From contig OMSJ01000001.1 of the NCBI GenBank assembly GCA_900313705.1, forward strand, positions 15,115 through 79,114: DNA of 64,000 bases, given 5' to 3'. The position numbers were made by a program, and so were the translations under genes. The stretch is from an uncultured Prevotellaceae bacterium (GTDB lineage: Bacteria; Bacteroidota; Bacteroidia; Bacteroidales; Bacteroidaceae). Below, piece after piece: positions 16,171 through 58,236 of the stretch; within the stretch, counting starts at the first letter, position 1; each line of letters starts with the position of its first letter. Below the pieces are notes generated by a model. That model searched no databases and was not told the origin of the DNA. It saw nothing but the letters and a program-made list of their open reading frames with translations.

Positions 16171-16879
16171 CGTCCACACCCACACCGTCATGAGCGGCCA
16201 TGCCTACAGCACCATGCAGGAGATGGTGACTGCCGCCCAGCAGAAACATCTCGACATCCTCGGCATTACGGAACATGCCCCAGGCATCCCCGGCACATGC
16301 CATCCCATTTACTTCCGCAACCTCCACGTCGTGCCCCGACAGTACGACGGCCTCCGTCTGCTGCTTGGCGCAGAACTCAACATCCTCGACACGAAAGGTA
16401 CGCTCGACCTCGACGAGTACTACTACCGGAAGCTTGACCTGCGCATCGCCGGCATCCATCTGCTTTGCTGGGAAGGCGGCACCATCGAAGAGAACACGCA
16501 GGGCATGATAAACGCCATACGCAATCCCTGGACACAAATCATCTCCCACCCGGGCGACGGCACAGCAGACCTCCTCTTCGAGCCCATCGTCCTCGCTGCC
16601 AAAGAGACTAAGACCTTACTCGAAATCAACAACAGCAGCCTCAACCCTGTGCGTAAGAAGGAAACGGCCCTGAAGAACAACCTCGAAATTCTGCGCCTCT
16701 GCAAACGGTACGAGGTGCCCGTCATCCTGAGCAGCGACGCACACATCAGCTACGCCATTGCCGACTACAGCTTCATCTGGCCTCTGCTCCAAGAGACAGA
16801 CTTCCCCGACCAGCTCATCATGAACTACGACACCGAAAGGTTCTTGGAGTACATCTCACGGAAAGGAGGCACACAATGA
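16157..16879 (+). CDS. PHP-domain phosphatase (YcdX-like)
   Basis: 240 aa. N-terminal DVHTHTVMSGHAY metal-binding motif and C-terminal SSDAH. Confidence 0.85.
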   Translation: MIKLDVHTHTVMSGHAYSTMQEMVTAAQQKHLDILGITEHAPGIPGTCHPIYFRNLHVVPRQYDGLRLLLGAELNILDTKGTLDLDEYYYRKLDLRIAGIHLLCWEGGTIEENTQGMINAIRNPWTQIISHPGDGTADLLFEPIVLAAKETKTLLEINNSSLNPVRKKETALKNNLEILRLCKRYEVPVILSSDAHISYAIADYSFIWPLLQETDFPDQLIMNYDTERFLEYISRKGGTQ

Positions 16880-23013: not shown

Positions 23014-23090
23014 GTACCTACTTCATCAATTAGGTGTACCTACTTCGTCAATTAGCTGTACCTACTTCGTCAATTAGCTGTACCTTCATT
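23014..23090. repeat. 22-bp tandem repeat x3.5 (GTACCTACTTCGTCAATTAGCT)
   Basis: Units at 23014, 23036 and 23058, with a partial unit at 23080. Sits between the DUF2723 promoter and the tRNA-Leu promoter. Confidence 0.9.
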
Positions 23091-27063: not shown

Positions 27064-27146
27064 AAGTACGTGTACTTGTTGCCATAAGTACGTGTACTTA
27101 TCCGAATAACTACGTGTACTTATCCCCATAAGTACGTGTACTTATC
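27064..27146 (+). repeat. 22-bp tandem repeat x4 (GTACGTGTACTTATCCnnATAA), locus A
   Basis: Unit starts at 27066, 27088, 27110 and 27132, an exact 22-bp phase. Confidence 0.9.
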
Positions 27147-33778: not shown

Positions 33779-33790
33779 GTTATTAATGTA

Positions 33791-33950
33791 TTAAGGATTA
33801 AGGATTAAAGATTAAGGATTAAGGTTTTGTTGATTTGGGAAGTAGGACAGCATTGCATCGGGCTTATTTCTTAATATATTACTTGGTATTTAGGAACCAA
33901 AGCAAACAGCTTTAATCATTAATCTTTAATCCTTAATCCTTAATCTCTAA
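33791..33950. repeat. Hairpin element with TTAAGGA heptamer arms
   Basis: Left arm 33791-33824 (TTAAGGATTAAGGATTAAAGATTAAGGATTAAGG). The complementary right arm at 33910-33950 overlaps the lolE-like stop codon. Confidence 0.85.
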
Positions 33951-35176
33951 TTCAATATCTTGCCTGCAAGATACTTCACCGGATACCATATTGCGAGCCA
34001 GCCGACGGCGAGGACGGTGACGAGGACAAGGAGGATGTCGGTGAGATAGACGCTGACGGGATAGGTCTCGATGATGAAGCTGCCTTCGCTGTCGCCCATC
34101 GTTACGATGCCATACTCTTGCTGAATCCAGCAGAGGACAGTGCCGAGCACCAGTCCGAGCAAGGCTCCGGCAAGGCTGATGATGTGGCCTTCCAAACGGA
34201 AGATGGTACAGATCTGCGAGTCGTTGGCACCAAGGCTGCGGAGTGTCTGGATGTCCTGTCGCTTGTCTATCATCAGCATCGAGAGGGAGCCGATGATGTT
34301 GAAGCAGGCAACGAGCAGGATGAAGGAGAGGAAGAAGTAGGAGATGAGCTTCTCGATGCGCATCACGCGGAAGACATCGTTCTGCTGTTCATAGCGATCC
34401 TCCACCTTGAAGCGCTCGCCGAGCTGTGCCTTTAGCTGTGCCTTCACCTTGTCTGCCTTGAGGCCGTCCTTGAGCTTCAGCTCGACGGACGACACTCTGC
34501 CCTGTCGGTCGAAGAGGCGCTGGGCAAAGCCGAGACTGGTGAGGATGTAGTTGGCATCGTACTTGGCCTGTCTGACCATGAAGACGACGCCCGGGCTTTG
34601 CAGCTCGTCGTGATTGAAGGAGGACAGTGGATTGCCGATGTTGACGCGCTCACCTGGCTTGGGAGCATAGATCTGTAGAGGGTCTTCGAAAAAGGCAGAG
34701 AGGCCCAGTTGCTGAGCCAGTTGTATGCCGAGGACGCCGTACTCCAGGATGTCGGCATGTAGGCAGAAGGAGCCGTCGCCATAGAGGATTTCCTCGATGC
34801 GTGTCTGTTTCGTGAAGTTGTCGGCAACGCCTTTGATGGTCACGACCTGCTGCCGTCCGTTCTGCACCACGAGTGCCTGTCCTTCGAGGACTGGCGTATA
34901 GACTTCCACGGCATCGCTCTTCTTGAGCTCCAGCAGGGCGGCGTCCTTGATGCTGACGGTCTGCCCGTCTGCCGGTGTGACGCGCAGTTCGGCATCGAAT
35001 GCCGTGAAGAGGTCGGCCACGAGGTCCTGGAAGCCGTTGAAGACGCTCAGCGTGACCACCATTGCCATCGTTGCCACAGCCACTCCGAGCACAGAGATGC
35101 CGCTGATGATGTTGATGGCATGGTGGCTCTTCTTGGCGAAGAGGTAGCGGCGAGCTATGAACAATTCATAATTCAT
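33947..35176 (-). CDS. FtsX/LolE-like ABC transporter permease
   Basis: 409 aa. N-terminus MNYELFIARRYLFAKK...INIISGISVLGVAV and a C-terminal FtsX 3-TM block. Confidence 0.85.
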   Translation of the reverse strand: MNYELFIARRYLFAKKSHHAINIISGISVLGVAVATMAMVVTLSVFNGFQDLVADLFTAFDAELRVTPADGQTVSIKDAALLELKKSDAVEVYTPVLEGQALVVQNGRQQVVTIKGVADNFTKQTRIEEILYGDGSFCLHADILEYGVLGIQLAQQLGLSAFFEDPLQIYAPKPGERVNIGNPLSSFNHDELQSPGVVFMVRQAKYDANYILTSLGFAQRLFDRQGRVSSVELKLKDGLKADKVKAQLKAQLGERFKVEDRYEQQNDVFRVMRIEKLISYFFLSFILLVACFNIIGSLSMLMIDKRQDIQTLRSLGANDSQICTIFRLEGHIISLAGALLGLVLGTVLCWIQQEYGIVTMGDSEGSFIIETYPVSVYLTDILLVLVTVLAVGWLAIWYPVKYLAGKILN

Positions 35177-35625: not shown

Positions 35626-35760
35626 AAGAAGATAAATGGAGATAGAAGAAGATAGAAGACGTTAGTTTTTGCAGCCGATAAAGGTATCGTCCTCTATCTT
35701 CGCCGCTGGAAGCGGCATATCTTCCTCTAACTTCCTCTATCTACTTCATCTTTAATCTTC
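35626..35760. repeat. Imperfect hairpin with GATAGAAGAA-type arms
   Basis: AAGAAGATAGAAGAAGATAAATGGAGATAGAAGAAGATAGAAG on the left, CTTCCTCTAACTTCCTCTATCTACTTCATC on the right, with an inner GCCGCT-GGA-AGCGGC hairpin. Confidence 0.75.
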
Positions 35761-37188
35761 CTCGCTGAACATCGGATCCCACGCTGGCAGGCGGATGGGC
35801 TTCTGCTTGAGCAGGTCGAGGACAGAGGCGGGACAGTACCTGCGGTTGGCGACGATGCGGAACATGTACTCGCGGAACCATTCGTCGGTCATGATGATGT
35901 AGCCGTTTGCGCCGCTGGCCGAGCCCCAACTGTTCTCCACCTTCCACTTCGTTGGCTTGCCCTCGCCGTCGAGGTCCACGGCCATGAGGGTCATGGCGTG
36001 CGTGCTGCCGCTGTCGAAGGTCTGGATGCGCTGTTTCTTGTTCATGCCGAAGGTGGTGCCCAGCAGACTGTCGTAGTCGAAGTTCTTGAGGTCGGCGATG
36101 CCCGTGTTGCGGTCGAGGCACTTGCCCACGTCGCAACTGAAGTATATCTGGCTACTGTCCTTGAGCGAAGCGATGGCGATGCTCTCCAGCTCCTCGATGG
36201 GCAGGTTGACGTAGAGCCAGTTGTGCCCGTCATAGACGTGGCGGTCGTAGTCTATCTCATAGACCTTGCCAAAGGGTCGGCTGGGGTCGTTCATCAGCAT
36301 GACGTAGTCCTTGTTGAGGTCCTCGCCCTCGCTGATGCAATAGGTCTTGAAGAAATCGAGGGGAGAAAAGACCCTCTCTAACTCCCCCTTAAAGGGGGAG
36401 GACTGGGGTAGGTCTTTCCAAGTGAATGTTTTTGGCGGTACGCCATAGGCCATGACGAGCATCTTATAGACGGTCTGGAGCTGCTCCACCTTCAGGGCTT
36501 CGAGCTGCTTCTCGCTCATGCCTGCCTCGCTCTTCTCGCGGAGGGTGATGCCGAACTCGCGGAGCTTGCGTTTCAGGTGACCGCAGAACTCGCTGGTACT
36601 GTTGCTGACGTAGGTCTCGGGCATGATGTCGGCAGGCACGACGCCGTATTTCGTGGCGAGGTCGGCCACGCCTGTGTAGGTGCCGCCGTCGGAGAGTGGG
36701 TGCTGGAAGAGCCAGCGCACCATCTCGCTGTCGATGGCTTCCTTGCGGGTGTCGATGATGCCTTGCAGGAAGAGGTTGCTCTTCTCCAGTTGGTCGTAGA
36801 AGAAGAGGTAGCCCTGGCTGAGCACGAAGTTCTTTGTGCCGAGCTTCTTCATGGCGCGTCCTCTCAGGATATTCAGCCCTGTGAAGAGCCAGCACCGCCC
36901 GCTACTCTTCTGGTCAGTGATTCCAGTATTCTTCACCTCGATGCTGAAGTCCAGATTCTTCGCTCCGGCGTTCTCCTGATTGATGGCCATCTTCTGCAGG
37001 CCGACATTGCTGATGGCGTTGCGGAGGGCCTTCTCGGCGGGTGTAGCGGTGTAGCTGCCTTCGAGCTTCTTCAGCACATCGGGCGTGATGTTCGTCTGGG
37101 CGCAGGCAGTAGAAAGTTGGACATCGAACATTGAACATTGAACTCCTGCTACAGCAAGGAGCAGGGCGCATAGAGTCGTTCTTTTCAT
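35752..37188 (-). CDS. pepC: Aminopeptidase C (bleomycin-hydrolase type C1B peptidase)
   Basis: 478 aa. Catalytic Cys motif QKSSGRCWLFTGLN and C-terminal ENSWG. Carries an in-frame palindromic element (SSPFKGELERV) and a TGTTCAA array in the signal-peptide region. Confidence 0.9.
   Translation of the reverse strand: MKRTTLCALLLAVAGVQCSMFDVQLSTACAQTNITPDVLKKLEGSYTATPAEKALRNAISNVGLQKMAINQENAGAKNLDFSIEVKNTGITDQKSSGRCWLFTGLNILRGRAMKKLGTKNFVLSQGYLFFYDQLEKSNLFLQGIIDTRKEAIDSEMVRWLFQHPLSDGGTYTGVADLATKYGVVPADIMPETYVSNSTSEFCGHLKRKLREFGITLREKSEAGMSEKQLEALKVEQLQTVYKMLVMAYGVPPKTFTWKDLPQSSPFKGELERVFSPLDFFKTYCISEGEDLNKDYVMLMNDPSRPFGKVYEIDYDRHVYDGHNWLYVNLPIEELESIAIASLKDSSQIYFSCDVGKCLDRNTGIADLKNFDYDSLLGTTFGMNKKQRIQTFDSGSTHAMTLMAVDLDGEGKPTKWKVENSWGSASGANGYIIMTDEWFREYMFRIVANRRYCPASVLDLLKQKPIRLPAWDPMFSEED
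36369..36415. repeat. AGACCC...GGTCT element, copy 3 (about 47 bp, single hairpin)
   Basis: AGACCCTCTCTAACTCCCCCTTAAAGGGGGAGGACTGGGGTAGGTCT, inside pepC. The first 36 nt are nearly identical to copy 2. Confidence 0.85.
37124..37144 (-). repeat. (TGTTCAA)x3 heptamer array in pepC signal-peptide region
   Basis: The minus strand reads GTTCAATGTTCAATGTTCGA, encoding QCSMFDV. Confidence 0.8.
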
Positions 37189-37230: not shown

Positions 37231-37309
37231 CGAAAAAGAATTAAGAGTTAAGAATTATGGGTGAATAAAAATAGATTATAATGAGGAAAACAACTCTTTT
37301 ACTGAAGTT

Positions 37310-37885: not shown

Positions 37886-37968
37886 AAGTACGTGTACTTG
37901 TCGCCATAAGTACGTGTACTTATCCGACTAACTACGTGTACTTATTGCCATAAGTACGCGTACTTATC
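37886..37968 (+). repeat. 22-bp tandem repeat x4, locus B (about 90 percent identical to locus A by eye)
   Basis: Unit starts at 37888, 37910, 37932 and 37954. Same orientation and register as locus A. Confidence 0.9.
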
Positions 37969-38213: not shown

Positions 38214-41200
38214 TTATTTAATGATGAGTTTATGTCCGTTGTTGATATAGATGCCCTTCTGGGTTGGCTTGCTGCCGAGGCGACGTCCATTCAGGTCGTA
38301 CCACTCTGCATCGTTGCCGTTTGTCTGCTTTTCGCTCTCGATGGAGATGATGCCCGTCGCATCGTCGTCCTCGCCGAAGTTCAGCACGAAGGACTTGACG
38401 CTAGCGCCTCCGAGCACAACCTGGAAGTAGGCGCGGAAGGCCTTGATGCTGGTCGGAGCGGTACCACTGGGATAATAGAGCGTGTTGCCTGTGCCCAGGA
38501 AGAGGACGCTCTTGTTCTCTGTTTCATAGCTGACGCGATCGTAAGTGCCCTGGAATGTCACATCGTTCAAGCCTGCATTATGGGCAACAACAGCTTCGGG
38601 ATCTGTAGCATTGATGGTAACGCCTGTGAACACAGGATTGGTGATATTAGAACCCGTAGGCCACTTCACGAGGTAAGGCACACCAGCCTTCATGCCCTCG
38701 CCAAGGTTATTTTCGTCGGTGGGATCATCGTCGAAGGCAACGTCTGTGAAGTTGAGGAAGAGCGTACTCGTGGTAGCATCAAAGCCGGTCTGATGACGGC
38801 CTTCACCAGCTTCATCGTAATGATTACCCTCGGCATCGTAGTAACCATCCACATCGAGTTCCTTGATGGAAACGGCACTCGAGAAGGGTGATGCCAGGAA
38901 GACGCTGCCATTCAGGTCGAAGGGCAGGCAGACGGTGTTCCAGTCGCCATCCTTGTAGAAGGTGCGGCCTTTGAGTGTGACTGTCATGCCAGAGATGTGG
39001 TCATTCGTACTGAGGACAGAAGAGTTGTTGTCATTGTCCTGAAGGGCGAGCGACTTTTTCCAAGTGAAGTAGCCCGTCATGGGGTTGGCCATTGCAGAGT
39101 TTATCTTGAACGGGGTGTACTTCACGCCACCTGTTAAGCTCTTGCAGAACGCGAACATGTCTTCTGAAGTTTCAATGTTCCAGGTGTTTTCACAATAGAT
39201 GGTAGTCAACGAGGGGCAGTTACTGAACATGGTGGTGGTGTTGGTCACCTTGCTTACGTCAAAGCCGTTGACATCTATTGTCACCAATTTTTCGCAACTG
39301 GCGAATGTGGCGTTCATAACTGTCACCTCGCTGGTATTCAGATTATCGATTCCAACTATCATGGTCAAATCTTTGAAGTCGTAGAACCACATGTAGAGGC
39401 TGTTGGGCTTCACGTCCTTGAAGCTCGAGTCGAAGACGACTCTGGTGGCAGTTTTGGCGACTTCCAACCACTTCGGCATGCCCCAGCCAGTCTTGGTGAC
39501 ATCGTTGCCTTTCCAAGAGTTTCCGCTGGTAACGGCCACGCCATTCCAGTGACCATCTGTTATATTTATTTCAGTCGTGACGAAGTAGAGCGTCGTGTTC
39601 TCACTGTCCCAGATGGCATATGGGGTGACTTCAGAAGAAAGTGTCACACCCTCGGCGGGCATGGTGAAGTAGTAGTAAGGTGCTCCATCAGTAGTACTGT
39701 CTTCACTAAGGTCAACATTAGCTTCGCCCTCTGTCGTCTTGGCAGTAGTAATTACCGAGCTGGTGAATATCACTGTCTGGCCGCTGGCACCATAATACTT
39801 GAATTCTTCACCGGTGAACATCATGAGCATATTGCCGCCGACGAACATGCTGCTGGCACTATAGAAGTTATTCATGTATGGCATCACAGCACCTGTCTCG
39901 TCTTTTATCTCATAGACCAGATTGCCTTGGGCTTCACCAAAAGTTGTGGTGTAATAACAGTTCTGCACTTCCGCAAATTGAGAAGCAGCCTGTGTTCCTC
40001 CCCAGCGGACGAAAGTCTTGCTGTTCGATGTTCCGAAAGTCCTCTCCGCAGGAGCGAACAGGCCGTTTTTGATAGTCAAAGACATACCAGTGATGTTTGT
40101 CCAACCTACGAAGCCACCGCAGTGTGTTGTGCTTGAGCCAAGCAGTTTGCCAGCGAAGACGCATCCTTCAATGGTGCACTTGCTGGTATATAAATTGCTG
40201 TAGGGATTCTGGAGAATACCTACCAGACCACCGATAGTGCCGTCGCCACTTACTGAACTGGTAATGGCAACATCGCTGTAGCAGTTCGTCAATTTAAGAT
40301 ACATGCCGCGTCCCACGATACTGCCGGCAAACTTACCCGAGGTAGAGATGGTTCCCGTTACCTTGAGGTTGTATATATTGCCGTCCACGTTTCTGAAGGG
40401 AGCTACAGCGAGCTCTCCGCTTTCACCCGCGAGAGCCATTGTGATGGTGTGGCCGTTACCGTCAAAGTAGCCCTTGAATGCATTTCCTCCGGTTATGTTG
40501 TTGCCATCGGCTTCAATGGTTCCCACCATGGTGTTGCCGATGTTGATGTCAGCTGTGAGCTTCACATATTGTCCTTCATGGGTCCAGCCATCATTTACCT
40601 TTGCAGCAAATGCTTGCCATTGTCTGGCTGTACCGATGAGGAATGGGTCGTTATCCGTGCCACGACCTTGAATGGTGGAAGCACCATCTGTCTCGGTGAA
40701 GTAGCCTGTGTCGGGGTTAGCCATATTGCCATGAACCTTTGAACCATTGTAAGCCACGCTCTTAGGCGTATTTCTCAAAGCACCGCATCCATCGAACATG
40801 AAAACGGCCGTTTCTATATCCCACGCATTATCACAGGTAATCGTCGTCAGATGAGTACATTGGCCGAACATTGCAGAGGCATTGGTCACCTTGCTGACAT
40901 CGAATTTGTTGACATTGATGGATGTAAGACCATAACACTTAAAGAACATCGAGTTCATGTTTGTGCACTCACTGGTGTTCAAGTTCTCGATTCCAGTTAT
41001 TGTGGTCAAATACTGGAATTCCATGAACCACCAGTACATGCTGCGGGGCTTCACATCAGCAAAGCTATCGTCGAAGACTACGGTGGTGATATTGGCTTTG
41101 TTTGTTGAATTTACCCATCCTGGACTAAGCCAACCTATATCATCTACAGCCTTACCGCTCCAAAGTTCTTCGATGGTTCCTACTTCTCTCCATGTGTCAC

Positions 41201-42947
41201 CGACTTTATATTTCCCCTTCGAATAGGCAAAGACAAGTTTATTGGTTCCAATCCTGAAGACATAGGCACTACCCTCGTTAGCAGATACCATGACAGACTT
41301 GGCAGGCATAGTGAAAGAATAGGGGTCAGGGCCAGTGTATGAAACAGTTTTGCCATCTTCATCCGTTATACCGTATAAGGTTCCTGCTCCTTTAAGGTTG
41401 AAGTAGAAAACATCGCCTTCTGCTGCGAACGCCAAAAGGTCGTCATCTTCTCCGGGTTCGGAAAGGTAACTCATGGCACCACCATTATAGACTTTGATGC
41501 TACTGGTATAGTATTGATTGTGAAGCCGTGCGGGTTCCAGGACATCATCGTCGTCCAACTCTATTTCGAGAGCCTGCTTGCCTGCGCTCCACTTGTGGAA
41601 GTTATAGTTGCTCGAGTTGCCAAAAGCCTGAGTACTACCGCTATTGTAGCAATAGTTGAGGTTTGTGTTTGTGAAGTTCGTGTAGGTGCCTTTCTCCACA
41701 CAGTCGTTAACTGAGATGTAGGCCTTGGTGTCGCACCAGCCTACAATGGCACCGGCATATAAGCCACCGCTACTTTCACGTTTGATGGTACCTTCGAACA
41801 GACAGCCTTCAATAGGAGTGCCTACATTGGGAGAATGACCATGGCCGACGACACCTCCAGCATACCGGTCTGTAGTGATAACAGTCGTTGCAACGCGACA
41901 GTCGCGGATGGTGGCTTGGTTTCGAATACTGCCTACGAGTCCGGCCGCGTGGCGGTCACCCTTTACAGTTCCCTTCACATAGACATTCTGAATGGTTGCG
42001 TGGGAGACGCAGGCAAAAGGAGCAACGAACTCTTTAGAGCCTTCATCGATATCCACGGTAAGCACATATTGATTAACATTATCTTTACCGATGAAAGTTC
42101 CACTGAAAGGCTTTCTATTAGCTTCATTGTCATCTTCTACACCGATGCAAGTCTTCACGGAAATGCTGTCTCCCAATTGGAAGAAAAGTGTAGAGCAGTT
42201 GTTGCCGGCTGCCACATAGCTACTCAGAGCATCCCACTGTGCAGCGTATTTGATAACGAAGGGATCATTCTCCGCTCCTGTACCTGTCATTGCAGGCTTG
42301 GTGGTGAAATAGCCGGTAAAGGGATTGGCCATGCTGATGTCATCAGGAGAAGAATCTTTCACATATCCCTTCAACTTGGTATTATAGAACATGTCGTTCG
42401 AACTGGCGATGCCCGACCAAGTCTTGTTACAATAAATGGTCCTCAAATTTTTACAAGCATAGAACATACCATTGACATCTGTAACCTTGCTCATGTCGAA
42501 AGTGGAGACATCAATTGATGTAAGACTAGTGCAAAGGCTGAACATGGACGCCATGGTCGTTACCTCAGAAGTATTGAGGTTTTCTATGCCTATAATGCTA
42601 TTTAAGCTTCCCAAGCCACTAAACCATTTCTGAAGGCTCTTAGGCTGCACGTCCTTGAAACTGCTGTCGAACTTGACAGTTGTTGCATCCATAGCCCGCG
42701 AATACCATTGAGATGTCGAAGGTGAGTTTGTCACATCTGGACCGCTCCACACTGCTGACACTGTCTGTCCGTCGAAAGTGTCATCTTTTGAAACCTGCTC
42801 CAGATTCACGAAATAGAGCGTGCGGTTACCTGCACACCAGACAGCCTGAGCCACTGGATCTGCCTGGGCAATACCTGTCCCAGACAACAAGACCGAGAGA
42901 AGGATAAGCATCCTCTTCATGGGCCTCAATAAAAATCTTTTTGCCAT
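38214..42947 (-). CDS. Giant BspA-type LRR (DUF285-like) / GLUG-motif surface protein with T9SS C-terminal domain
   Basis: Three repeats of the module VxFDSSFKDVxPxSxxxWF...NLNTSEVTxMxxMFxxCxxLTxIDVxxFDxSKVTxxxxMFxxCxxLxTIYCxxxW. GLUG-like beta-solenoid stretches (AGLVGS, GGVVGH, IGGLVGI, CGGFVGW). C-terminal WYDLNGRRLG..GIYINNGHKLIIK sorting tail. The track start (TTG 43001) overlaps the -7 box, so I use ATG 42947. ATG 42920 (MKRMLILL signal peptide) is equally possible. Confidence 0.85.
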   Translation of the reverse strand: MAKRFLLRPMKRMLILLSVLLSGTGIAQADPVAQAVWCAGNRTLYFVNLEQVSKDDTFDGQTVSAVWSGPDVTNSPSTSQWYSRAMDATTVKFDSSFKDVQPKSLQKWFSGLGSLNSIIGIENLNTSEVTTMASMFSLCTSLTSIDVSTFDMSKVTDVNGMFYACKNLRTIYCNKTWSGIASSNDMFYNTKLKGYVKDSSPDDISMANPFTGYFTTKPAMTGTGAENDPFVIKYAAQWDALSSYVAAGNNCSTLFFQLGDSISVKTCIGVEDDNEANRKPFSGTFIGKDNVNQYVLTVDIDEGSKEFVAPFACVSHATIQNVYVKGTVKGDRHAAGLVGSIRNQATIRDCRVATTVITTDRYAGGVVGHGHSPNVGTPIEGCLFEGTIKRESSGGLYAGAIVGWCDTKAYISVNDCVEKGTYTNFTNTNLNYCYNSGSTQAFGNSSNYNFHKWSAGKQALEIELDDDDVLEPARLHNQYYTSSIKVYNGGAMSYLSEPGEDDDLLAFAAEGDVFYFNLKGAGTLYGITDEDGKTVSYTGPDPYSFTMPAKSVMVSANEGSAYVFRIGTNKLVFAYSKGKYKVGDTWREVGTIEELWSGKAVDDIGWLSPGWVNSTNKANITTVVFDDSFADVKPRSMYWWFMEFQYLTTITGIENLNTSECTNMNSMFFKCYGLTSINVNKFDVSKVTNASAMFGQCTHLTTITCDNAWDIETAVFMFDGCGALRNTPKSVAYNGSKVHGNMANPDTGYFTETDGASTIQGRGTDNDPFLIGTARQWQAFAAKVNDGWTHEGQYVKLTADINIGNTMVGTIEADGNNITGGNAFKGYFDGNGHTITMALAGESGELAVAPFRNVDGNIYNLKVTGTISTSGKFAGSIVGRGMYLKLTNCYSDVAITSSVSGDGTIGGLVGILQNPYSNLYTSKCTIEGCVFAGKLLGSSTTHCGGFVGWTNITGMSLTIKNGLFAPAERTFGTSNSKTFVRWGGTQAASQFAEVQNCYYTTTFGEAQGNLVYEIKDETGAVMPYMNNFYSASSMFVGGNMLMMFTGEEFKYYGASGQTVIFTSSVITTAKTTEGEANVDLSEDSTTDGAPYYYFTMPAEGVTLSSEVTPYAIWDSENTTLYFVTTEINITDGHWNGVAVTSGNSWKGNDVTKTGWGMPKWLEVAKTATRVVFDSSFKDVKPNSLYMWFYDFKDLTMIVGIDNLNTSEVTVMNATFASCEKLVTIDVNGFDVSKVTNTTTMFSNCPSLTTIYCENTWNIETSEDMFAFCKSLTGGVKYTPFKINSAMANPMTGYFTWKKSLALQDNDNNSSVLSTNDHISGMTVTLKGRTFYKDGDWNTVCLPFDLNGSVFLASPFSSAVSIKELDVDGYYDAEGNHYDEAGEGRHQTGFDATTSTLFLNFTDVAFDDDPTDENNLGEGMKAGVPYLVKWPTGSNITNPVFTGVTINATDPEAVVAHNAGLNDVTFQGTYDRVSYETENKSVLFLGTGNTLYYPSGTAPTSIKAFRAYFQVVLGGASVKSFVLNFGEDDDATGIISIESEKQTNGNDAEWYDLNGRRLGSKPTQKGIYINNGHKLIIK

Positions 42948-42998
42948 AAGAATAAATGATATAATAATAAATAATGTATTTAGTATGATTTGAGCGTG

Positions 42999-43006
42999 CA
43001 AATGTA
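42999..43006 (-). promoter_or_regulatory. -7 box TACATTTG for the giant surface-protein gene
   Basis: Same octamer as the pepC promoter. It lies on the TTG start proposed by the ORF track, which argues for a downstream ATG. Confidence 0.55.
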
Positions 43007-43282
43007 CGAATAAGTTAGTTTAGTACAAAATAATATCACTATTTTTTTTATAAATATCAATAACTTTTCATCCTAATTGTACCTTTATAGTGCCTATTCA
43101 CAGAGTAGTACAAGTAATAATCGCTCTGTTCTTCCCTTCGGTCAGGCGCAGACGGAACTCCCCTCCAGGAAAAAAAAGTGTCTGTCAGTCAGCTTACCCT
43201 ATTGAACAGATTTCGACAAACTCACGTTATGTTAATTTTGTATTTTATCCACGATGATTTTGCTTTTTTGAATTATATGTTG

Positions 43283-43290
43283 TATCTTTG
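43283..43290 (+). promoter_or_regulatory. -7 box TATCTTTG for the mannose isomerase/ROK/MFS cluster
   Basis: TAnnTTTG match 21 nt upstream of the ATG at 43311. Confidence 0.6.
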
Positions 43291-43310
43291 CAAAAGAAAT
43301 ATCATGTTTT

Positions 43311-45041
43311 ATGAGAAAAAGCAACTACGACAAGCAACCCAGCACCCACATCGACGGCAAGGCTGTCATTGGCTGGGACAATATCGTTCAGACACTCAGC
43401 AAAGCTTGGGCTGACGAGCCCGTCTGGGCCATCGACCTCTATCCGGGCACCTACGAGGAGGACTTCATCAACGCCTTTGCCAAGACCGGCCGAAAGATTA
43501 TCAATACCCGCGACCTCATGCGGCCTGAAGAGGAAATCCGACAACTGACGGAACGCTTTATGACCGATGACGTGCTCTTCGGATACATGTCGAACATTCG
43601 CTTACACGAATATTTCGACAATTCAAAATTAATAAATTCAAAATTCAAAATTGAAGAGCCCATTGCCATCATTGGCACAGGCGCAGCCTTCGTCGCCGAG
43701 AAATGGTCAATGGTCAATGGTCAATGGTCAATAGTTTACGCCGACATGGCCCGCTGGGAGATTCAGCAACGCTTCCGCCGACACGAAGTGAAGGCGCTCG
43801 GCATCGACAACCACGAGGACAGTCCCTCGGTGCAATATAAAAGAGGTTACTTCAACGACTGGAACATCATCGACCGCTACAAGGACGAGCTGATGCAGAG
43901 CGGACGCATCGAGTTCTGGATTGACTCGAACCGTCGCGACGAGCCGAAGATGATTACCGACGCGCAGATGCGGCAAGGACTGGAGCGCACGGCTCACAAA
44001 CCTTTCCGCGTCGTTCCCTTCTTCGACCCGGCTCCTTGGGGAGGCCAGTGGATGAAGGAAGTCTGCGACCTGCCTCGCGAGGAGGTGAACTACGGCTGGT
44101 GCTTCGACTGCGTGCCCGAGGAGAACAGCCTCTATCTGGAGGCCGACGGCATGCTCTTCGAACTGCCTTCGCAGGACGTCGTGCTGGCTCACACTCGCGA
44201 GCTGCTCGGACAGCAGGTGTGGCATCGCTTCGGCAAGAGTTTCCCCATCCGCTTCGACTTCCTCGACACCATGCAGGGCGGCAACCTCAGCCTGCAGGTG
44301 CATCCCACCAACGAGTTCGCACAGAAGGAGTTCGGTCTGCCCTACACGCAGGACGAGAGCTACTATCTGCTTGATGCTGGCGAGGATGCGGTGGTCTATC
44401 TCGGCCTGAAAGAAGGCATCGACAAGGTGCAGATGATAGAGGACCTGCGGGCTGCCCAGCGGGGCGAGATTCTGTTCGACGCCGAGAAGTACGTCAACAA
44501 ATTGCCTGCCAAGAAGCACGACCACTACCTCATCCCCGCCGGCACCATCCATTGCTCCGGCCACGACAGCATGGTGCTCGAGATAAGCTCTACGCCCAGC
44601 ATCTTCACCTTCAAGCTATGGGACTGGGCACGCCTCGGACTGGACGGCAAGCCAAGGCCCATCAACGTGGAGCGCGGCAAGTTCGTCATCCAATGGGAGC
44701 GCACCACATCCTTCGTCAAGTCGCAAATAGCCAACCACTTCGAGGTATTGAGCGAGGAAGAAGGCATCAAGGAAGAGCGGACCGGACTGCATCCCAACGA
44801 GTTCATCGAGACGCGGAGGCACACCTTCACTCGTCCCGTAGAGCACGACACGCGTGGCGGCGTCAACGTCCTCAACCTCGTTGATGGCGAAGCAGCACTC
44901 ATCGAGAGTCCCGAAGGCAAGTTCGAGCCCTTTGAGGTGCACTATGCCGAGACCTTCATCATCCCCGCTTGCGTAGGGCGCTACACCATCAAGCCCCTCG
45001 ACAAGGAGTGCATGACAATCAAGGCATACGTGAGAGCCTGA
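43311..45041 (+). CDS. Class I mannose-6-phosphate isomerase-like protein (long form)
   Basis: 576 aa. Cupin/PMI signature LSLQVHPTNEFAQKEFGLPYTQDESYY. Contains an in-frame (TGGTCAA)x4 array (WSMVNGQWS). Confidence 0.7.
   Translation: MRKSNYDKQPSTHIDGKAVIGWDNIVQTLSKAWADEPVWAIDLYPGTYEEDFINAFAKTGRKIINTRDLMRPEEEIRQLTERFMTDDVLFGYMSNIRLHEYFDNSKLINSKFKIEEPIAIIGTGAAFVAEKWSMVNGQWSIVYADMARWEIQQRFRRHEVKALGIDNHEDSPSVQYKRGYFNDWNIIDRYKDELMQSGRIEFWIDSNRRDEPKMITDAQMRQGLERTAHKPFRVVPFFDPAPWGGQWMKEVCDLPREEVNYGWCFDCVPEENSLYLEADGMLFELPSQDVVLAHTRELLGQQVWHRFGKSFPIRFDFLDTMQGGNLSLQVHPTNEFAQKEFGLPYTQDESYYLLDAGEDAVVYLGLKEGIDKVQMIEDLRAAQRGEILFDAEKYVNKLPAKKHDHYLIPAGTIHCSGHDSMVLEISSTPSIFTFKLWDWARLGLDGKPRPINVERGKFVIQWERTTSFVKSQIANHFEVLSEEEGIKEERTGLHPNEFIETRRHTFTRPVEHDTRGGVNVLNLVDGEAALIESPEGKFEPFEVHYAETFIIPACVGRYTIKPLDKECMTIKAYVRA
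43704..43731 (+). repeat. (TGGTCAA)x4 heptamer array inside the isomerase ORF
   Basis: Four perfect units encoding WSMVNGQWS. Confidence 0.95.
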
Positions 45042-46312: not shown

Positions 46313-47491
46313 ATGAATAAGAAGTTAATCCCCGTCATGCTATGCTTCTTCGCCATGGGCTTCGTCGATATGGTAGGCATAGCAAGCAACTATGTAAAAG
46401 AGGACTTGAACCTCACCGACTCGATGGCCAACACGCTGCCATCGCTTGTGTTCCTCTGGTTCCTCATCTTCAGCATTCCCACGAGTCTGCTGATGAACAA
46501 GATAGGCCGCAAGAATACCGTCCTGCTGAGCCTTGTTATGACCCTTGTGGCAATGGCGATTCCGGTATTCACCCTCGATTTCACCATGCTGCTGCTCTCC
46601 TTCTCCCTTTTGGGAATAGGCAACGCCATCCTTCAGACCTCGCTCAACCCGTTGGTTGATAGCGTGATGAAAGGCGGAGCATCAGCCAGCACCCTGACCT
46701 TTGGGCAGTTCATCAAGAGCATCGCCTCGTTCCTGGCTCCCATCATTGCCTCTTGGGGAGCTACGACGAATGCTTTCGGCTTGGGTTGGCAGGCACTCTA
46801 TCCTATATATTTATGTGTAGGAGTTGTGGCAACGCTGCTGCTCTTCGGAACGAAGATAACAGACCCCTCTAAATCTCCCCTTAAAGGGGAGACTTCCTGC
46901 GCAGGCTCCTCCCCTTTAAGGGGAGGTTGGGTAGGGTCTTTTGCCTTGCTGGGCAATCCCTTCATCCTGCTTTGCTTCCTCGCCATCATCTGCCATGTAG
47001 GCATTGATGTCGGCACCAGCATCACAGCCCCGAAGATCCTGATGGAGCGCACCGGCATGAGCCTCAACGATGCCGCCTTCGTCTGCACCATCTACTTTGT
47101 GGCCAAGGCTGCAGGCAGCTTCAGCGGTAGCTTCATCATGGGTTTCCTCAAGGACTGGACCTTCCTACTCCTGAGTGTCCTGTTGATGGTGGCAGCCGCC
47201 TTCGGCCTCATCTACGGAGAGAGCACCGCCGTCATCTATGCCAGCGTTGCCTTGATGGGCTTCGGCAATGGCAATCCCTTCAGCATCATCTTTGCCCGTG
47301 CCATGCAAGCCGTACCGGAGAAGAAGAACGAAGTCAGCGGCCTGCTCATCATGGGCATCTTCGGCGGCACCATCTTCCCGCTTCTGATGGGCTTTGCCAG
47401 CGATGCGATGGGACAGGTGGGTGCCGTCCTCGTCATGAGTGTCGGCATTCTCTACCTGCTTGGCTTCTGGCTACAAGGCAGGAAAGCATAG
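46313..47491 (+). CDS. MFS sugar transporter (glucose/galactose or fucose permease-like)
   Basis: 392 aa and about 12 TM helices. The central loop carries an in-frame 79-bp palindromic element (DPSKSPLKGETSCAGSSPLRGGWVGS). Confidence 0.85.
   Translation: MNKKLIPVMLCFFAMGFVDMVGIASNYVKEDLNLTDSMANTLPSLVFLWFLIFSIPTSLLMNKIGRKNTVLLSLVMTLVAMAIPVFTLDFTMLLLSFSLLGIGNAILQTSLNPLVDSVMKGGASASTLTFGQFIKSIASFLAPIIASWGATTNAFGLGWQALYPIYLCVGVVATLLLFGTKITDPSKSPLKGETSCAGSSPLRGGWVGSFALLGNPFILLCFLAIICHVGIDVGTSITAPKILMERTGMSLNDAAFVCTIYFVAKAAGSFSGSFIMGFLKDWTFLLLSVLLMVAAAFGLIYGESTAVIYASVALMGFGNGNPFSIIFARAMQAVPEKKNEVSGLLIMGIFGGTIFPLLMGFASDAMGQVGAVLVMSVGILYLLGFWLQGRKA
46861..46939. repeat. AGACCC...GGGTCT element, copy 4 (79 bp)
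   Basis: AGACCCCTCTAAATCTCCCCTTAAAGGGGAGACT...CTCCTCCCCTTTAAGGGGAGGTTGGGTAGGGTCT, inside the MFS ORF. Confidence 0.85.
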
Positions 47492-47650: not shown

Positions 47651-48163
47651 TTATCTCGTCAATGTGTTGAGCGTATCCTTTACGGGCTTGGCAAGCTCGG
47701 CAGATTGTTGTTCGGGCTTGGAAGCAATGGAGTCGTTGCCCATGGACCATTGAGCATCGACCACGACTTCTCCCTTCTTCGCAGCGGGACTGGGGTCGTC
47801 GGTGAAGCTTTGCTGTGCTGCATTGCCGATGGTAAGAAGGATGGCGATGAGTCCTGCTGCCCTGTAGAAAGGACGAAGGCGACGCACAAAGGTTAGGCGG
47901 CGAGCCTTGCAAATGTTCCCTTCCTGCCTTCCTCCGTTGTGGGAAGTGTCTTCCCCAACCATCTGAAGCATCTTGTCGGCAAAGTCTTTGCTCAAGTGCT
48001 CGCTTGCCATCTCGTCTTGCTCTTTGAAGAACTGACGATAGGGAAGCAGACTGGCCGGTACATCTTCCTGACGGAAGAAATTGCGCAGGATAGTCTCCTC
48101 TTCAAGCGTCGTCTGGCACTCCCAGTAGCGCTCAAGCAGTTGCTCTATGTATTTATAGTCCAT
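47651..48163 (-). CDS. Single-pass membrane protein, putative anti-sigma factor partner
   Basis: 170 aa and one TM helix (AAGLIAILLTIGNAA). Sits directly downstream of an ECF sigma gene. No motif I can name. Confidence 0.45.
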   Translation of the reverse strand: MDYKYIEQLLERYWECQTTLEEETILRNFFRQEDVPASLLPYRQFFKEQDEMASEHLSKDFADKMLQMVGEDTSHNGGRQEGNICKARRLTFVRRLRPFYRAAGLIAILLTIGNAAQQSFTDDPSPAAKKGEVVVDAQWSMGNDSIASKPEQQSAELAKPVKDTLNTLTR

Positions 48164-48173: not shown

Positions 48174-48297
48174 AATTAAGAATTAAGAGATAGGAATTAA
48201 GAATTTGCTATTGTTCAAAGATCTTTAATCTTTAATCCTTAATCTTTAATCCTTAATCTTTAATCCTTAATCTTTAATCTTTAATCTTTATTCCCTC
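48174..48297. repeat. AATTAAG / TAATCTT-TAATCCT heptamer arrays
   Basis: 48221-48297 is about 11 tandem heptamers of the same family as 33910-33950. A short AATTAAG array lies at 48174-48205. Confidence 0.85.
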
Positions 48298-48771
48298 TTT
48301 TATCTTCGTCCTGGCCCTGTGGAGATAGACCTTGACTTGTGTCTCGCTGATGTCGAGGGTCTGTGCTATCTCCTGATAGGTCTTGCCTTCGATGTCGCGC
48401 AGCAGCATGATGGTGCGTTGCAGTTCCGGCAAGCTATCCATGAGGCGGCGCACGAGAGAGAGTTGTTCGCGGGCTTCCATCGAAGACTGCACGTTGGGCA
48501 TTGCGGAATGCACATCGTCAACCTCGTCGAGGGACTTGGTGTTGCGGCCCGCCCGTTTCAGCACATCGAGCGCTCTGTTCCTGCAAATGGCGATTGCGAA
48601 GGCTTCGAGGCTGTTTATCTGCTCCCACTGGCTGCGCTGCTCCCACACTTTCAGGAGTGTGTCCTGCACCACATCTTCGGCCTCTGCCCTGTTCATCGTG
48701 ATGCGCAGAGCAAGGCGGAAGAGCCTGTCGCTCAGCGGCAAAACGGTGGTTCGGAAGCTGATGTTTTCCAT
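48274..48771 (-). CDS. ECF-subfamily RNA polymerase sigma-70 factor
   Basis: Region 2 (AEDVVQDTLLKVW) and region 4 (TYQEIAQTLDISETQVKVYLHRAR). Start set to MENISF (48771). The last 7 codons and the stop lie in the TAATCTT heptamer array. Confidence 0.9.
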   Translation of the reverse strand: MENISFRTTVLPLSDRLFRLALRITMNRAEAEDVVQDTLLKVWEQRSQWEQINSLEAFAIAICRNRALDVLKRAGRNTKSLDEVDDVHSAMPNVQSSMEAREQLSLVRRLMDSLPELQRTIMLLRDIEGKTYQEIAQTLDISETQVKVYLHRARTKIKEGIKIKD

Positions 48772-48815
48772 CTCTCTACTTATGAAGACGATTGAAGAGG
48801 GCAAAAGTTACACAT

Positions 48816-49760: not shown

Positions 49761-49826
49761 TTGCACCGTCGCGACAATTCAATTGCATCGTCGCGACGAT
49801 GCAATTGCAGCATCGCGACGCTGCAA
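49761..49826. repeat. Three abutting 22-bp dyads TTGCAnCG-TCGCGA-CGnTGCAA
   Basis: TCGCGA cores at 49769, 49791 and 49813. The middle unit is part of a perfect 24-bp palindrome, ATTGCATCGTCGCGACGATGCAAT (49782-49805). Sits between the rsgA stop and the argB start. Confidence 0.9.
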
Positions 49827-49839: not shown

Positions 49840-50802
49840 TCAGAAGGCCGCACGATACTTGCCTTCATCCTTGTCGTCGAGCATCGAGAGATAGCTCATA
49901 TAGCGGCTCTCGGCAATGCTCCCTTCGGCTACGGCCTGCAAGACGGCGCAGCCCGGTTCGTGGGTATGCGTGCAGTTGCCGAAGCGACAGCCGTCGGAGG
50001 TGCGGAAGATCTCGCGGAAGTAGTGGGACACCTCCTCGCGCTCCATGTCAAAAGTGCCGAAGCCTTTGATGCCCGGCGTGTCGATGAGCGCCCCGCCTTC
50101 CGGCAGGAAGAACATCTGCGAGAAAGTCGTGGTGTGCATCCCTGAGTCGTGTACCGCGCTGATTTCTGCGGTCTTGGCATCGGCATCGGGCACGAGCAGG
50201 TTGAGCAACGTGCTCTTCCCCACCCCGCTGTTGCCGCTGAGAAGGGTCGTCCGGCCTTGAAGTTCCTTTCGAAGTTCTTCGATGCCCGTCCTTTCCTCTG
50301 CAGAGCAAGTCAGGCAGGAATAGCCGATGCCACGATACAGGGCAACGATTTCCTCGAGTTGCTTCTGCTCCGCTTCATCATAGAGATCCGTCTTGTTGAA
50401 GACAATCAAGACAGGTACACGATACGCCTCGGCGCTTGCCAGGAAGCGGTCGATGAAGGTGGTGCTCGTCTCGGGGTGGGCAATGGTGACAATCAGCGCA
50501 GCCATATCAACGTTGGCTGCGATGATGTGATCCTCGATGTCCTCTATCAGAGCAGTCGGACATTGAACATTGACCATTGACCATTGACCATTGACCGTTG
50601 GGGCGTTGGGGCTTTGCGAGGGGGGCTGGCCGTTGGGCATCGGTTGGGGTATGATGCTGACCACATCTCCTACGGCCACGGGGCTGGTGCTACGGATGCC
50701 TTTGAGGCGAAAGTTGCCTTTCACCTTGCATTCGTAGAGCCGGCCGTCGTCCGCCTGAACGGTGTACCAACTGCCGGTGTTCCTTATGACGAGACCCTTC
50801 AT
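49840..50802 (-). CDS. rsgA: Ribosome small-subunit-dependent GTPase A
   Basis: 320 aa. N-terminal OB fold [16 protein letters not shown]...VAVGD, circularly permuted GTPase motifs ([17 protein letters not shown]) and a C-terminal zinc knuckle [17 protein letters not shown] repeat-derived insertion lies after the OB fold. Confidence 0.88.
50563..50597 (-). repeat. (TGGTCAA)x4 + TGTTCAA array inside rsgA
   Basis: The plus strand reads TTGAACA TTGACCA x3 TTGACCG, encoding [12 protein letters not shown]. Further GTTGGGG-type repeats follow up to about 50660. Confidence 0.9.
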
Positions 50803-50810: not shown

Positions 50811-50918
50811 AGGTTTAAGAGGTTAGAGGTTAGAGGTTAGGGGTTAGAGGATACCTCTGGAAGCTGACATGCTGCCAAGACAATTCTCTAACCCCTAACC
50901 TCTTACCTCTTACCACTA
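50811..50918. repeat. Hairpin element with GGTTAGA heptamer arms, copy 2
   Basis: Left arm 50811-50850. The right arm at 50883-50918 is identical over 36 nt (ATTCTCTAACCCCTAACCTCTTACCTCTTACCACTA) to 5311-5346. A partial arm is also present at 58211-58230. Confidence 0.9.
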
Positions 50919-53159: not shown

Positions 53160-54101
53160 ATGAAACTGCGCCATTCCATACTTGCACTCCTGCTCTTTAC
53201 CCAGTGGTCAATGGTCAATAATCAATGGTCAATGATTCGGGCACAAGAGAACGACGAGGTCGGCATCTGGTCGGAGATAGGAGTAGAGAAGTCCATCACG
53301 AAGAAATGGAACGTGGGCCTGGACTTGGAGTATCGTGCCCAGAACAGGTCGCGCTTCTCCGCAGGACTCAGCACAAGCTACAAGCCGTGGAAATGGCTAA
53401 AGTTCGGCATCGGCTATAACTACCTCCACTCCTACCGCCCGGACAGGTACAAGGAGAAAAACACCAAAGAGGAAGATCCCGACAACTATTCCATCGGCTA
53501 CAACCTCACTCCCGAGTACTGGTTCCCCCGACATCGCTTCAGCGTAGAAGCGATTGGCAGCGTCAAACTCTGGGGATGGCTCAAGGTTTCACTCAGAGAG
53601 CGCTATCAGTTGACATACTGCAAAGAAAGAAACGTCGCCAAATACAAGTACCGTCAGGACTATACGACACAAATGGACCTGGTATATCCTCCAGGCAATC
53701 CCGACGACCCATGGGATCCCATCAACTGGGCTGACCCGACGCCCGTCTATACCTACGACGTCCCCGACGGAGAACCGACAGGAACATGGGAGACAGAAGT
53801 CAAACCATCCTCTACCGACCAGGTGCTGCGCTCGCGACTGAAACTTGAATTTGACAAGAAGCGCAACCCATTCTCGCCATTCATCTCGGCAGAGCTACAC
53901 AACAGCGTCAAGCCAGGCGACAAGATGCTTCTGCAGAAGATACGAACCGCTGCAGGCCTAAGCTATAAATTCCGCAAGCACCACGAGGTGACCTTTGCAT
54001 ACCTGCTGACCTTCGACATTCACGACGTCGAAGAAGATGTTGTGGTCAGCGTACACAACAGGATGCACGCCATCAACTTCGGATACAACTACAGCTTCTG
54101 A
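53160..54101 (+). CDS. DUF2490-like outer-membrane beta-barrel protein
   Basis: 313 aa with a signal peptide. Alternating amphipathic strands ending in an aromatic residue (NFGYNYSF). A TGGTCAA array sits next to the signal-peptide cleavage region. Confidence 0.55.
   Translation: MKLRHSILALLLFTQWSMVNNQWSMIRAQENDEVGIWSEIGVEKSITKKWNVGLDLEYRAQNRSRFSAGLSTSYKPWKWLKFGIGYNYLHSYRPDRYKEKNTKEEDPDNYSIGYNLTPEYWFPRHRFSVEAIGSVKLWGWLKVSLRERYQLTYCKERNVAKYKYRQDYTTQMDLVYPPGNPDDPWDPINWADPTPVYTYDVPDGEPTGTWETEVKPSSTDQVLRSRLKLEFDKKRNPFSPFISAELHNSVKPGDKMLLQKIRTAAGLSYKFRKHHEVTFAYLLTFDIHDVEEDVVVSVHNRMHAINFGYNYSF
53205..53232 (+). repeat. (TGGTCAA)x4 (one unit TAATCAA) array in the DUF2490-like ORF
   Basis: TGGTCAA TGGTCAA TAATCAA TGGTCAA, encoding WSMVNNQWSM just after the signal peptide. 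Confidence 0.9.
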
Positions 54102-58163: not shown

Positions 58164-58236
58164 CTGCTTAACCTATAGCACATGCAAAGATACAAACTTT
58201 TTTTGGATTGGAGGTTAGAGATTAGAGATTATTTCG

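Follow-up and report, generated by a model that had tools for sequence, protein, structure and literature searches.

Heptanucleotide repeat arrays read in frame in core genes of a ruminal Prevotella-like bacterium: probable passengers filtered by selection

Simple sequence repeats (SSRs) with heptameric units are over-represented in some bacteria, and microsatellites whose unit is not a triplet are normally purged from bacterial coding DNA. Heptanucleotide short tandemly repeated repetitive sequences (STRRs) were reportedly first described in 1990, by Mazel and colleagues, in Calothrix PCC 7601; the classical STRR units include CCCCAGT, TTGGTCA and CAACAGT, none of which is a rotation of TGGTCAA. 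The best-studied heptameric case is the GGGNATC repeat found in Xanthomonas and Nostoc (Rehm et al. 2015, PMC4692102). A phase-variable SSR with a 7-bp unit lies upstream of hmw1A (PMC8262952), and REPINs are REP doublets that form hairpins (PMC3116915). In-frame selfish repeats in housekeeping genes are represented by the Rickettsia palindromic elements (RPEs; Ogata et al. 2000, as described in PMC10969869). A literature search for heptamer repeats in Prevotella or Bacteroidota, or for the repeat strings themselves, returned nothing relevant. Here we analyse 64,000 nt of DNA from an uncultured Prevotellaceae bacterium (GenBank assembly GCA_900313705.1, contig OMSJ01000001.1, positions 15,115 to 79,114; hereafter the window), in which arrays of the heptamers TGGTCAA and TGTTCAA (together TGKTCAA, K being G or T) are translated as parts of conserved genes. 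These arrays are probably lineage-specific heptanucleotide microsatellites that have proliferated in a ruminal Prevotella-like clade, functionless passengers that are filtered by selection wherever they fall in genes.

The window has a G+C content of 53.7%, and its proteins are nearest to those of "Bacteroidaceae bacterium" and Prevotella metagenome-assembled genomes (MAGs) of the ruminant gut. About 20 period-7 arrays were found in the 64 kb by Tandem Repeats Finder (TRF). Under a strict criterion seven arrays of period 7 were retained, compared with one of period 9 and none of periods 4-6, 8 and 10-12. Three tandem TGKTCAA units with at most three mismatches gave 16 overlapping matches at six loci, where 100 dinucleotide-preserving shuffles led to an expectation of 0.00. 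Tandem units above chance and copy-number polymorphism, the two marks of a simple sequence repeat or long-unit microsatellite, were both observed. A scan of the window at Rfam gathering thresholds returned a single tRNA and nothing else.

An earlier note on this DNA had placed TGGTCAA/TGTTCAA arrays in five coding regions. All five are present, and their open reading frames (ORFs) are supported by Pfam: an RluA-family pseudouridine synthase, aminopeptidase C (pepC), a mannose-6-phosphate isomerase homologue, rsgA and a DUF2490 family gene (Table 1). The positions reported for three of them (16130-16157, 43704-43731 and 53205-53232) were reproduced exactly, while the pepC array, said to begin at 37124, proved slightly longer (37117-37144). 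Two further coding arrays had been missed, namely an AATTCAA array at 43620-43652 in the isomerase gene (site 1, the TGGTCAA array of this gene being site 2) and a decayed array at 47736-47763. The latter is matched with three mismatches, against no match by chance, and a protein alignment reveals a replaced segment there, VVDAQWSMGND. The rsgA array sits between the RsgA_N and GTPase domains. In the case of the isomerase, the alignment with 120 homologues (86-94% identity) continues in one frame on either side of the array; exact-protein lookup found no identical protein on record for the window isomerase.

Every reading frame through such an array reads all seven triplets of the unit, because 7 is coprime to 3. 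TGGTCAA and TGTTCAA contain no stop triplet, whereas their complements contain TGA; GGTTAGA and TTAAGGA, found elsewhere in the window, contain stops on both strands. This arithmetic, on which the earlier note was built, is correct, and it extends to AATTCAA, the sense strand of which is stop-free and the complement of which holds TGA. All five arrays are indeed in sense orientation to their hosts, three on the plus and two on the minus strand. Since the stops leave only the sense orientation open to arrays of at least three units if the ORF is to stay intact, the five-out-of-five pattern alone is uninformative on mechanism.

To place the arrays in a wider sample, three tandem TGKTCAA units were sought in the GTDB species collection, which yielded at least 119 stretches. 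The counts in this paragraph hold among the matches listed. About 55 stretches come from ruminal Prevotella/Bacteroidaceae/Bacteroidales and 22 from cyanobacteria, and the remaining ones from Chitinophagales, Ignavibacteria, Acidobacteriota, Nitrospira and others. The Prevotella-group arrays (n = 59) comprise 21 internal to long ORFs, 16 near the N terminus, 3 near the C terminus and 19 outside ORFs. Every TGKTCAA array lying wholly within a long ORF is in sense orientation (31/31). Outside ORFs ∼16 arrays are antisense and ∼11 sense to the flanking genes. As both orientations occur there, the uniform orientation inside ORFs is not an insertion bias. Arrays are also present in two isolates in culture, Xylanibacter ruminicola D31d and Prevotellaceae HUN156 (L062 and L110; L numbers denote contigs).

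A clade survey covering ∼595 kb of ruminal Prevotella DNA counted 216 period-7 arrays in all. The 139 by-catch arrays, i.e. those not selected by the query, fall into 45 in ORFs and 94 in intergenic DNA, with ORFs making up 87% of the DNA, which corresponds to a ∼14-fold higher density in intergenic DNA. Units with stops on both strands were intergenic in 39 cases and apparently within ORFs in five. On inspection, all 13 arrays that seemed to carry a stop on the sense strand turned out to be either false ORF calls or arrays in which the offending unit is mutated. One false call concerns the GATTAGA array at 58206-58231 of the window, where the ORF has a spurious N-terminal extension that lies ahead of a -7 promoter box; another is an ORF called on the wrong strand in L127. 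A patched stop was found in the isomerase gene of L001 (TAA to CAA), and further ones in L034, L088 and L127. The array of L114 carries a 1-nt insertion that resets the phase, and in RmlD (L004) an in-frame stop within a ∼90-nt double array has been mutated away. Antisense arrays in intact ORFs, regarded in the earlier note as a sign against filtering, formally exist in purM of L048 and in an RluA gene of L031. The array's TGA has been patched in each, to TTA in the antisense arm of purM and to TCA in RluA, so that these cases strengthen the argument for selection and do not refute it. Hosts confirmed by Pfam outside the window are purM, RluA, RmlD, MetH, carbamoyl-phosphate synthase, GH94 and TamB, and DUF5715 in HUN156. 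Within genes the arrays favour the first third (42/77), 18 of them lying in the first 40 codons. The most frequent array size is ∼4 units, probably an effect of the detection threshold.

Where arrays meet gene ends, their stops and starts are put to use. The TGA of antisense arrays at gene 3' ends serves as the stop codon (L007, L102, L103, L076, L064), other antisense arrays begin 3-5 nt from the stop (L117, L115, L091, L109), and sense arrays supply start codons in L035 and in the PHP gene of the window. The array at 48221-48290 provides the last codons and the stop of a sigma-70 ORF (48274-48804, minus strand). The other heptamer families, described earlier as occurring only between genes, do touch gene ends. 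Where an array donates the stop (the sigma-70 ORF; L007, L102, L103, L076), orthologues are alike at the C terminus except for the tail that the array contributes. Taken together, the two orientations outside ORFs, the donated 3' stops, the patched stops, the three-unit length steps described below and the depletion from ORFs support the view that the repeats arise in both orientations and that gene-breaking ones are removed by selection. The earlier proposal of repeats seeded everywhere and then filtered is upheld in its core; "everywhere" is too simple, as permissive sites and junctions are repeatedly reoccupied by different units or elements.

Orthologous sites were supplied by synteny contigs of related genomes, and a metagenome scan for isomerase relatives gave ∼7 close relatives (the source of L130-L133) and few by-catch arrays. 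A comparison of orthologues, as suggested before, showed that relatives lack the array at four of the five positions and that the unit number is polymorphic at two. In the L005 lineage the isomerase, pepC, rsgA and DUF2490 sites are all empty, no period-7 array exists in 21.7 kb, and the intergenic spacers are much shorter. L001 has the window's isomerase arrays only. The pepC array is missing in L001, L004 and L005, and the DUF2490 array in L001 and L005, the window protein being 8 aa longer there. Isomerase site 2 holds four units in the window, ten in L004 (+42 nt, with a period-21 substructure) and none in L005; L130, which belongs to the same species (95% DNA identity), has four units with one point change. 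At the rsgA site nine units are found in L128, the closest relative at this gene, against six in the window, and the site is empty in L001, L005, L127 and L129 (311 aa). Both length polymorphisms thus amount to exactly six or three units and keep the frame.

The units themselves change at a given site. Among relatives including L126-L132, isomerase site 2 is occupied by TGGTCAA, TGTTCAA, TTGTCAA, TTATCAA, ACATCAG or CTCNCAA units, and in one allele by a 33-nt G-rich hairpin element next to a one-unit array remnant. Site 1, ∼50 nt upstream, is a hypervariable cassette among the 120 homologues. At the rluA/PHP junction of other lineages, (TATGAAT)n supplies the TGA that ends rluA as well as the ATG of PHP. 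The array in the rluA tail (MFNDQCSMFNDKA) is of fixed length in homologues down to ∼74% protein identity, and a 99% identical RluA-family protein (P0121) has the same length and the same tail. The arrays are of differing age, and some are effectively fossilised. Two other arrangements at the isomerase locus were considered and rejected. Sites 1 and 2 do not form a hairpin around the conserved GTGAA segment, as their units are not complementary and the fold lacks significance (z = -1.2). The sequence GGCGCAGCC between the arrays, which matches the motif "GGCTGCGCC" in the core of some hairpin elements, consists of ancestral G-A-A codons with synonymous variation and was taken as coincidence.

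Table 1. Arrays, host genes and inverted-array pairs of the window (positions in the 64,000-nt stretch)
Feature	Position	Strand	Remarks
Array 1, TGTTCAA CGATCAA TGTTCAA TGTTCAA	16130-16157	+	aa 526-535, RluA-like C-terminal tail MFNDQCSMFN
RluA-family pseudouridine synthase, 538 aa (host of array 1)	14554-16170	+	PseudoU_synth_2 337-485 (Pfam); array beyond domain
PHP-domain ORF	16157-16879	+	ATG overlaps end of array 1
pepC array, ∼4 decayed units	37117-37144	-	sense TTCAA TGTTCAA TGTTCGA TGTCCAA; signal peptide, aa 16-24
Aminopeptidase C (pepC), 478 aa (host)	35752-37188	-	Peptidase_C1_2 34-473 (Pfam); array precedes domain
Isomerase site 2, TGGTCAA x4, perfect	43704-43731	+	encodes WSMVNGQWS, aa 132-141
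Isomerase site 1, AATTCAA x4.6	43620-43652	+	TRF; encodes NSKLINSKFKI
Class I mannose-6-phosphate isomerase homologue, 576 aa	43311-45041	+	weak PMI_typeI_cat; NCBI names of homologues 86-94% identical
rsgA array, 6 units (CGGTCAA, TGGTCAA x3, TGTTCAA, TGTCCGA)	50556-50597	-	aa ∼69-82; GCCCCAA-type 8-mers before array
rsgA ORF, 320 aa	49840-50802	-	RsgA_N 2-51, RsgA_GTPase 91-249 (Pfam); PDB homologues 1u0l, 2rcn
DUF2490 array, TGGTCAA x2, TAATCAA, TGGTCAA	53205-53232	+	aa 16-25, past signal-peptide core
DUF2490 family ORF, 313 aa	53160-54101	+	Pfam
Decayed TGGTCAA-like array (TGGTCGA TGCTCAA TGGTCCA TGGGCAA)	47736-47763	-	sense; 170-aa ORF beside sigma-70 gene
GGTTAGA hairpin, frr-rsgA: (GGTTAGA)n, 35-nt core, (TCTAACC)n	50813-50918		fold z = -6.9
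Second GGTTAGA hairpin	5199-5347		fold z = -8.9
Inverted pair (ATTAAGG)n ... (TTAATCC)n	33782-33951		fills gap between two minus-strand genes; fold z = -6.7
Inverted pair AATTAAG / ATCTTTA (x10)	48174-48294		weak fold, z = -2.2

Under the reading we favour, an array in a gene would have to pass four filters. It could hold no in-frame stop, so that only the stop-free strand would be tolerated unless the offending unit were mutated. The net change in length would have to be a multiple of 3 nt, and later changes would accordingly involve three units at a time (21 nt, 7 aa). The position in the protein would have to be tolerant, for example within a signal peptide, at a terminus, in an interdomain linker or in a variable loop. 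Finally, the cyclic heptapeptide encoded, WSMVNGQ for TGGTCAA or CSMFNVQ for TGTTCAA and the same in any frame, would have to be innocuous. Once in place, arrays would expand, contract and change their unit by replication slippage and point mutation, and would at times be overwritten by other small repeats.

How new sites are seeded is suggested by the inverted pairs of arrays that form hairpins. The two GGTTAGA hairpins of the window share one identical arm of 33-36 nt, imperfect units included. A ∼35-nt core (AAATGTTT..GGC..GCC..AGGTATT) is homologous at four non-orthologous loci, namely in both window GGTTAGA elements and in L001 and L004. At the frr/rsgA junction the core is inverted between the window (50813-50918) and L001 (17085-17187). 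The arms at this junction differ by lineage, being GGTTAGA, AATTCAT or GGATTAG hairpins; L128 (8428-8526) and L129 (7391-7488) have hairpins with different arms, and in L005 and L127 the junction is empty. In purM (L048) and RluA (L031) a whole inverted-array hairpin, consisting of antisense arm, spacer and sense arm, is inserted in frame. From the identical arm, the homologous cores, the inverted core, the turnover at the junction and the whole hairpins in purM and RluA, we infer that copy-paste of repeat-armed elements is favoured over a purely independent birth of arrays at each site. New sites would then be seeded mainly by copying existing repeat DNA, be it through mobile hairpin elements, microhomology-mediated template switching or gene conversion.

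The strongest competitor holds that each array was born independently from a chance proto-repeat by slippage, that arrays converged on favoured units and that no DNA moved between loci. It can point to loci that stay while the unit changes, as with (TATGAAT)n versus (TGTTCAA)n at rluA/PHP and the many units at isomerase site 2, to the gradation of the rsgA units from GCCCCAA over CGGTCAA and TGGTCAA to TGTTCAA, and to the frequency of neighbouring arrays with unlike units. The ancestral rsgA site also contains CGGGCAA, one mismatch from CGGTCAA; as a seed this heptamer is unconvincing, as it persists upstream of the insertion, where it does not adjoin the array. On the other hand, one unit recurs at six loci in 64 kb against an expectation of zero, and the empty ancestral sites bear little resemblance to the unit. 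Independent birth also leaves the arm with its shared imperfections, the cores at non-orthologous loci and the hairpins inserted as a whole without an account, and one G-rich 33-mer is shared by the two isomerase sites and window position 18190. We therefore regard an independent origin of every array as rather unlikely, and as less likely than copying.

A bolder version of copying is that the arrays are arms or footprints of a new class of tiny mobile hairpin elements, each composed of a core and family-specific inverted heptamer arms, which insert at junctions and in ORFs, invert their core and displace each other at hot spots. We put this forward as a tentative idea that is more probably wrong than right. 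If true, a dedicated enzyme that generates or recognises repeats, and not generic slippage, would lie behind the strict 7-nt period seen in Prevotella, heterocystous cyanobacteria, Chitinophagales and their phages, and the 35-year-old question of STRR origin could be tested in a clade for which hundreds of close genomes exist.

Several observations weigh against the account of copied and filtered repeats given so far. Inverted pairs number only 16 among the neighbouring pairs of the 216 arrays, and most arrays, the five coding arrays of the window included, are solitary and coreless. No transposase, RAYT (REP-associated tyrosine transposase) or reverse transcriptase was found in the ten large window ORFs scanned, and the frr/rsgA junction shows no evident target-site duplication. 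All TGKTCAA arrays of the window are genic and none is intergenic, which is somewhat unexpected under uniform seeding followed by filtering; in the wider sample, about one third of the TGKTCAA arrays among the matches listed lie outside ORFs. The stop-free filter leaves the dominance of TGGTCAA/TGTTCAA, and the period of 7 in place of 6 or 9, unexplained. The tolerance of the insertion sites, for instance as a putative surface loop, is deduced from domain boundaries and alignment gaps. An AlphaFold2 model of the isomerase, made from a shallow alignment of 40 sequences, had a mean predicted local distance difference test (pLDDT) score of 43.7 and was unusable.

A further possibility is that the arrays are contingency loci, in which slippage by one unit switches the host gene off and on (phase variation). 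The unit is not a multiple of three, so that a change of one or two units shifts the frame, and copy number does vary between strains; many intergenic arrays moreover lie ∼10 nt upstream of -7 boxes, where the unit number could tune expression. In silico, the loss of one or the gain of two units in the isomerase gene led at once to a TAG, and the gain of one or the loss of two to a 35-aa out-of-frame tail. The warning in the earlier note that one unit more or less would frameshift housekeeping genes is in this respect logically right, yet no frameshifted allele was seen at the consensus level. The tail predicted for a gain of one unit found no candidates in the protein database, but as even in-frame query words went unmatched, this negative carries no information. 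At ∼60 arrays no frameshifted or split gene was found, the lone candidate being a promoter region, and all length differences seen are multiples of three units. In addition, the hosts are housekeeping genes (rsgA, isomerase, pepC, RluA, purM, metH, carAB, rmlD) and not surface or restriction-modification genes, the length of the rluA tail array is constant over the range of identity given above, and three of the five arrays are located in signal peptides or in a C-terminal tail. Phase variation is accordingly an improbable explanation.

Still less probable is that the encoded heptapeptide is useful to the protein, as a flexible linker or for surface variation, and is retained for this reason. 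WSMVNGQWS is kept across 8-10% amino-acid divergence, and the rluA tail over a wider range still. However, the units also occur in non-coding DNA and in both orientations, the host proteins are unrelated, and the positions include signal peptides that are cleaved off. At the isomerase site the peptide is swapped or absent while the remaining protein stays >86% identical; what is conserved is the DNA repeat, not the peptide. That the arrays are intergenic or mis-assembled, with ORFs merely running through the stop-free strand, is hardly credible: stop-free repeats do lengthen ORFs falsely (as with GATTAGA, above) and arrays 1, 2 and 5 are near gene ends, but in isomerase and rsgA conserved protein sequence flanks the array on either side without a change of frame, the arrays of pepC and DUF2490 come after a conserved MKxx start of the signal peptide that orthologues have in common, and the arrays, at 28-42 nt, are shorter than a read and recur in independent assemblies (L130, P0121) and cultured isolates.

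Several observations were made beside these arrays. In the window rsgA gene, 16 conserved residues (RRNYIIRKASNLSKQS, 48 nt) are missing at ∼50529/50530 (minus strand) which are present in all relatives, including L128, whose rsgA is otherwise close to that of the window over the N-terminal region compared. The deletion would take out the last strand of the OB (oligonucleotide/oligosaccharide-binding) fold and the linker; decay of the gene, an assembly error or a deletion specific to this strain could account for it. A 1595-aa DUF285-repeat gene (38288-43306) separates the pepC and isomerase genes; L130 has unrelated DNA in its place (134-2779), and it is absent in L001 and L004. This region looks like a strain-variable island.

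The window also harbours other repeats. At 14355-14470 and 18105-18234, a WbqC-like ORF and QueG contain in-frame insertions of G-rich inverted doublets of ∼115 nt, with the arm AAGCCCCCTCCCCGCTCCCCCTTTGGGGGAGTGC and a spacer of ∼40 nt. L128 and L131 carry the 33-mer of these doublets, which also stands at window position 18190, at both isomerase sites and in opposite orientations. The doublets look like true RPE-like or REPIN-like elements. Hairpins of the form CTCCCC(N)GGGGAG are read through in frame in ORFs at 16110-16128, 33614-33670, 36365-36420 (pepC, SSPFKGEL) and 46860-46945 (major facilitator superfamily, MFS); one of them adjoins array 1, which has a CTCCCCTTTAGGGGGAG hairpin immediately upstream. 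Repeats with a 22-nt period and palindromic cores were found at 10111-10166, 23014-23085, 27064-27146, 37886-37968 and 49761-49826, the unit AAGTACGTGTACTTATC[C/G]CCAT occurring at two separate loci. Ten copies of the 9-nt unit TGAGCCCCA, with a 27-nt super-period, occupy 12265-12355 directly upstream of the start of a signal peptidase ORF at 12362. Heptamer arrays often end ∼10 nt upstream of a Bacteroidetes-type -7 box (TAnnTTTG), for example at 58206-58231 and 37236-37257 of the window and in L034, L040, L067, L099, L104 and L114, and unit number could influence promoter geometry there. In IMG/VR, 73 viral contigs (L212-L284) with exact TGKTCAA x3 contain 81 arrays, 50 of them in ORF contexts, at a median G+C of 51%. 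Phage populations may hold the same TGKTCAA repeats.

These findings matter because non-triplet arrays are here common in genes for core metabolism and ribosome biogenesis in a genus that is dominant in the rumen. Selection edits the arrays at single-nucleotide resolution, through patched stops, 21-nt steps and donated stops or starts, which makes them a natural experiment on the filtering of selfish or neutral repeats and on insertion-tolerant protein sites. They are also a warning for annotators and MAG pipelines, since the arrays extend ORFs, make starts and stops and inflate apparent protein diversity. With many close rumen genomes, and phages, the clade offers a data-rich system for asking what generates bacterial period-7 repeats, a question unanswered for STRRs.

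Set against the known systems, the arrays resemble the cyanobacterial STRRs as dispersed 7-nt tandem arrays at many loci, with several unit families, few to ∼15 copies and an unsettled origin. Exact TGKTCAA x3 even occurs in Calothrix, Nostoc, Fischerella, Tolypothrix and Westiellopsis among the matches listed. The host here is however a member of the Bacteroidota and not a cyanobacterium, and among the same matches 19 of 22 cyanobacterial TGKTCAA arrays are found outside ORFs, compared with ORF contexts for about two thirds of those of the Prevotella group. The GGGNATC repeats are likewise genome-wide heptameric SSRs of variable unit number (PMC4692102), but they are G-rich and quadruplex-forming, while the units described here have no G-tracts and many are translated in frame in housekeeping genes. 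With the contingency loci of Haemophilus and Neisseria the arrays share a non-triplet SSR in which slippage could shift the frame or alter a promoter. They differ in that no out-of-frame alleles were seen, in the three-unit steps and in their housekeeping hosts, and by the tests available this is not a contingency-locus system. The intergenic heptamer arrays are like REPINs in being dispersed inverted doublets with long hairpins and homologous cores; they are unlike them in that the arms are tandem heptamers and not a single REP, and the five coding arrays are solitary. RPEs too are selfish short repeats inserted in frame in many unrelated housekeeping genes, where a peptide is added and the protein is not destroyed. 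They measure 100-150 bp and have a conserved consensus and peptide, whereas the arrays are iterated 7-mers of variable copy number without a core. In place of a palindromic consensus of ∼100-150 bp, the five arrays consist of 7-mers only and have unique flanks. The case joins two known phenomena, as STRR-like heptamer arrays are here frequent in-frame passengers in core genes.

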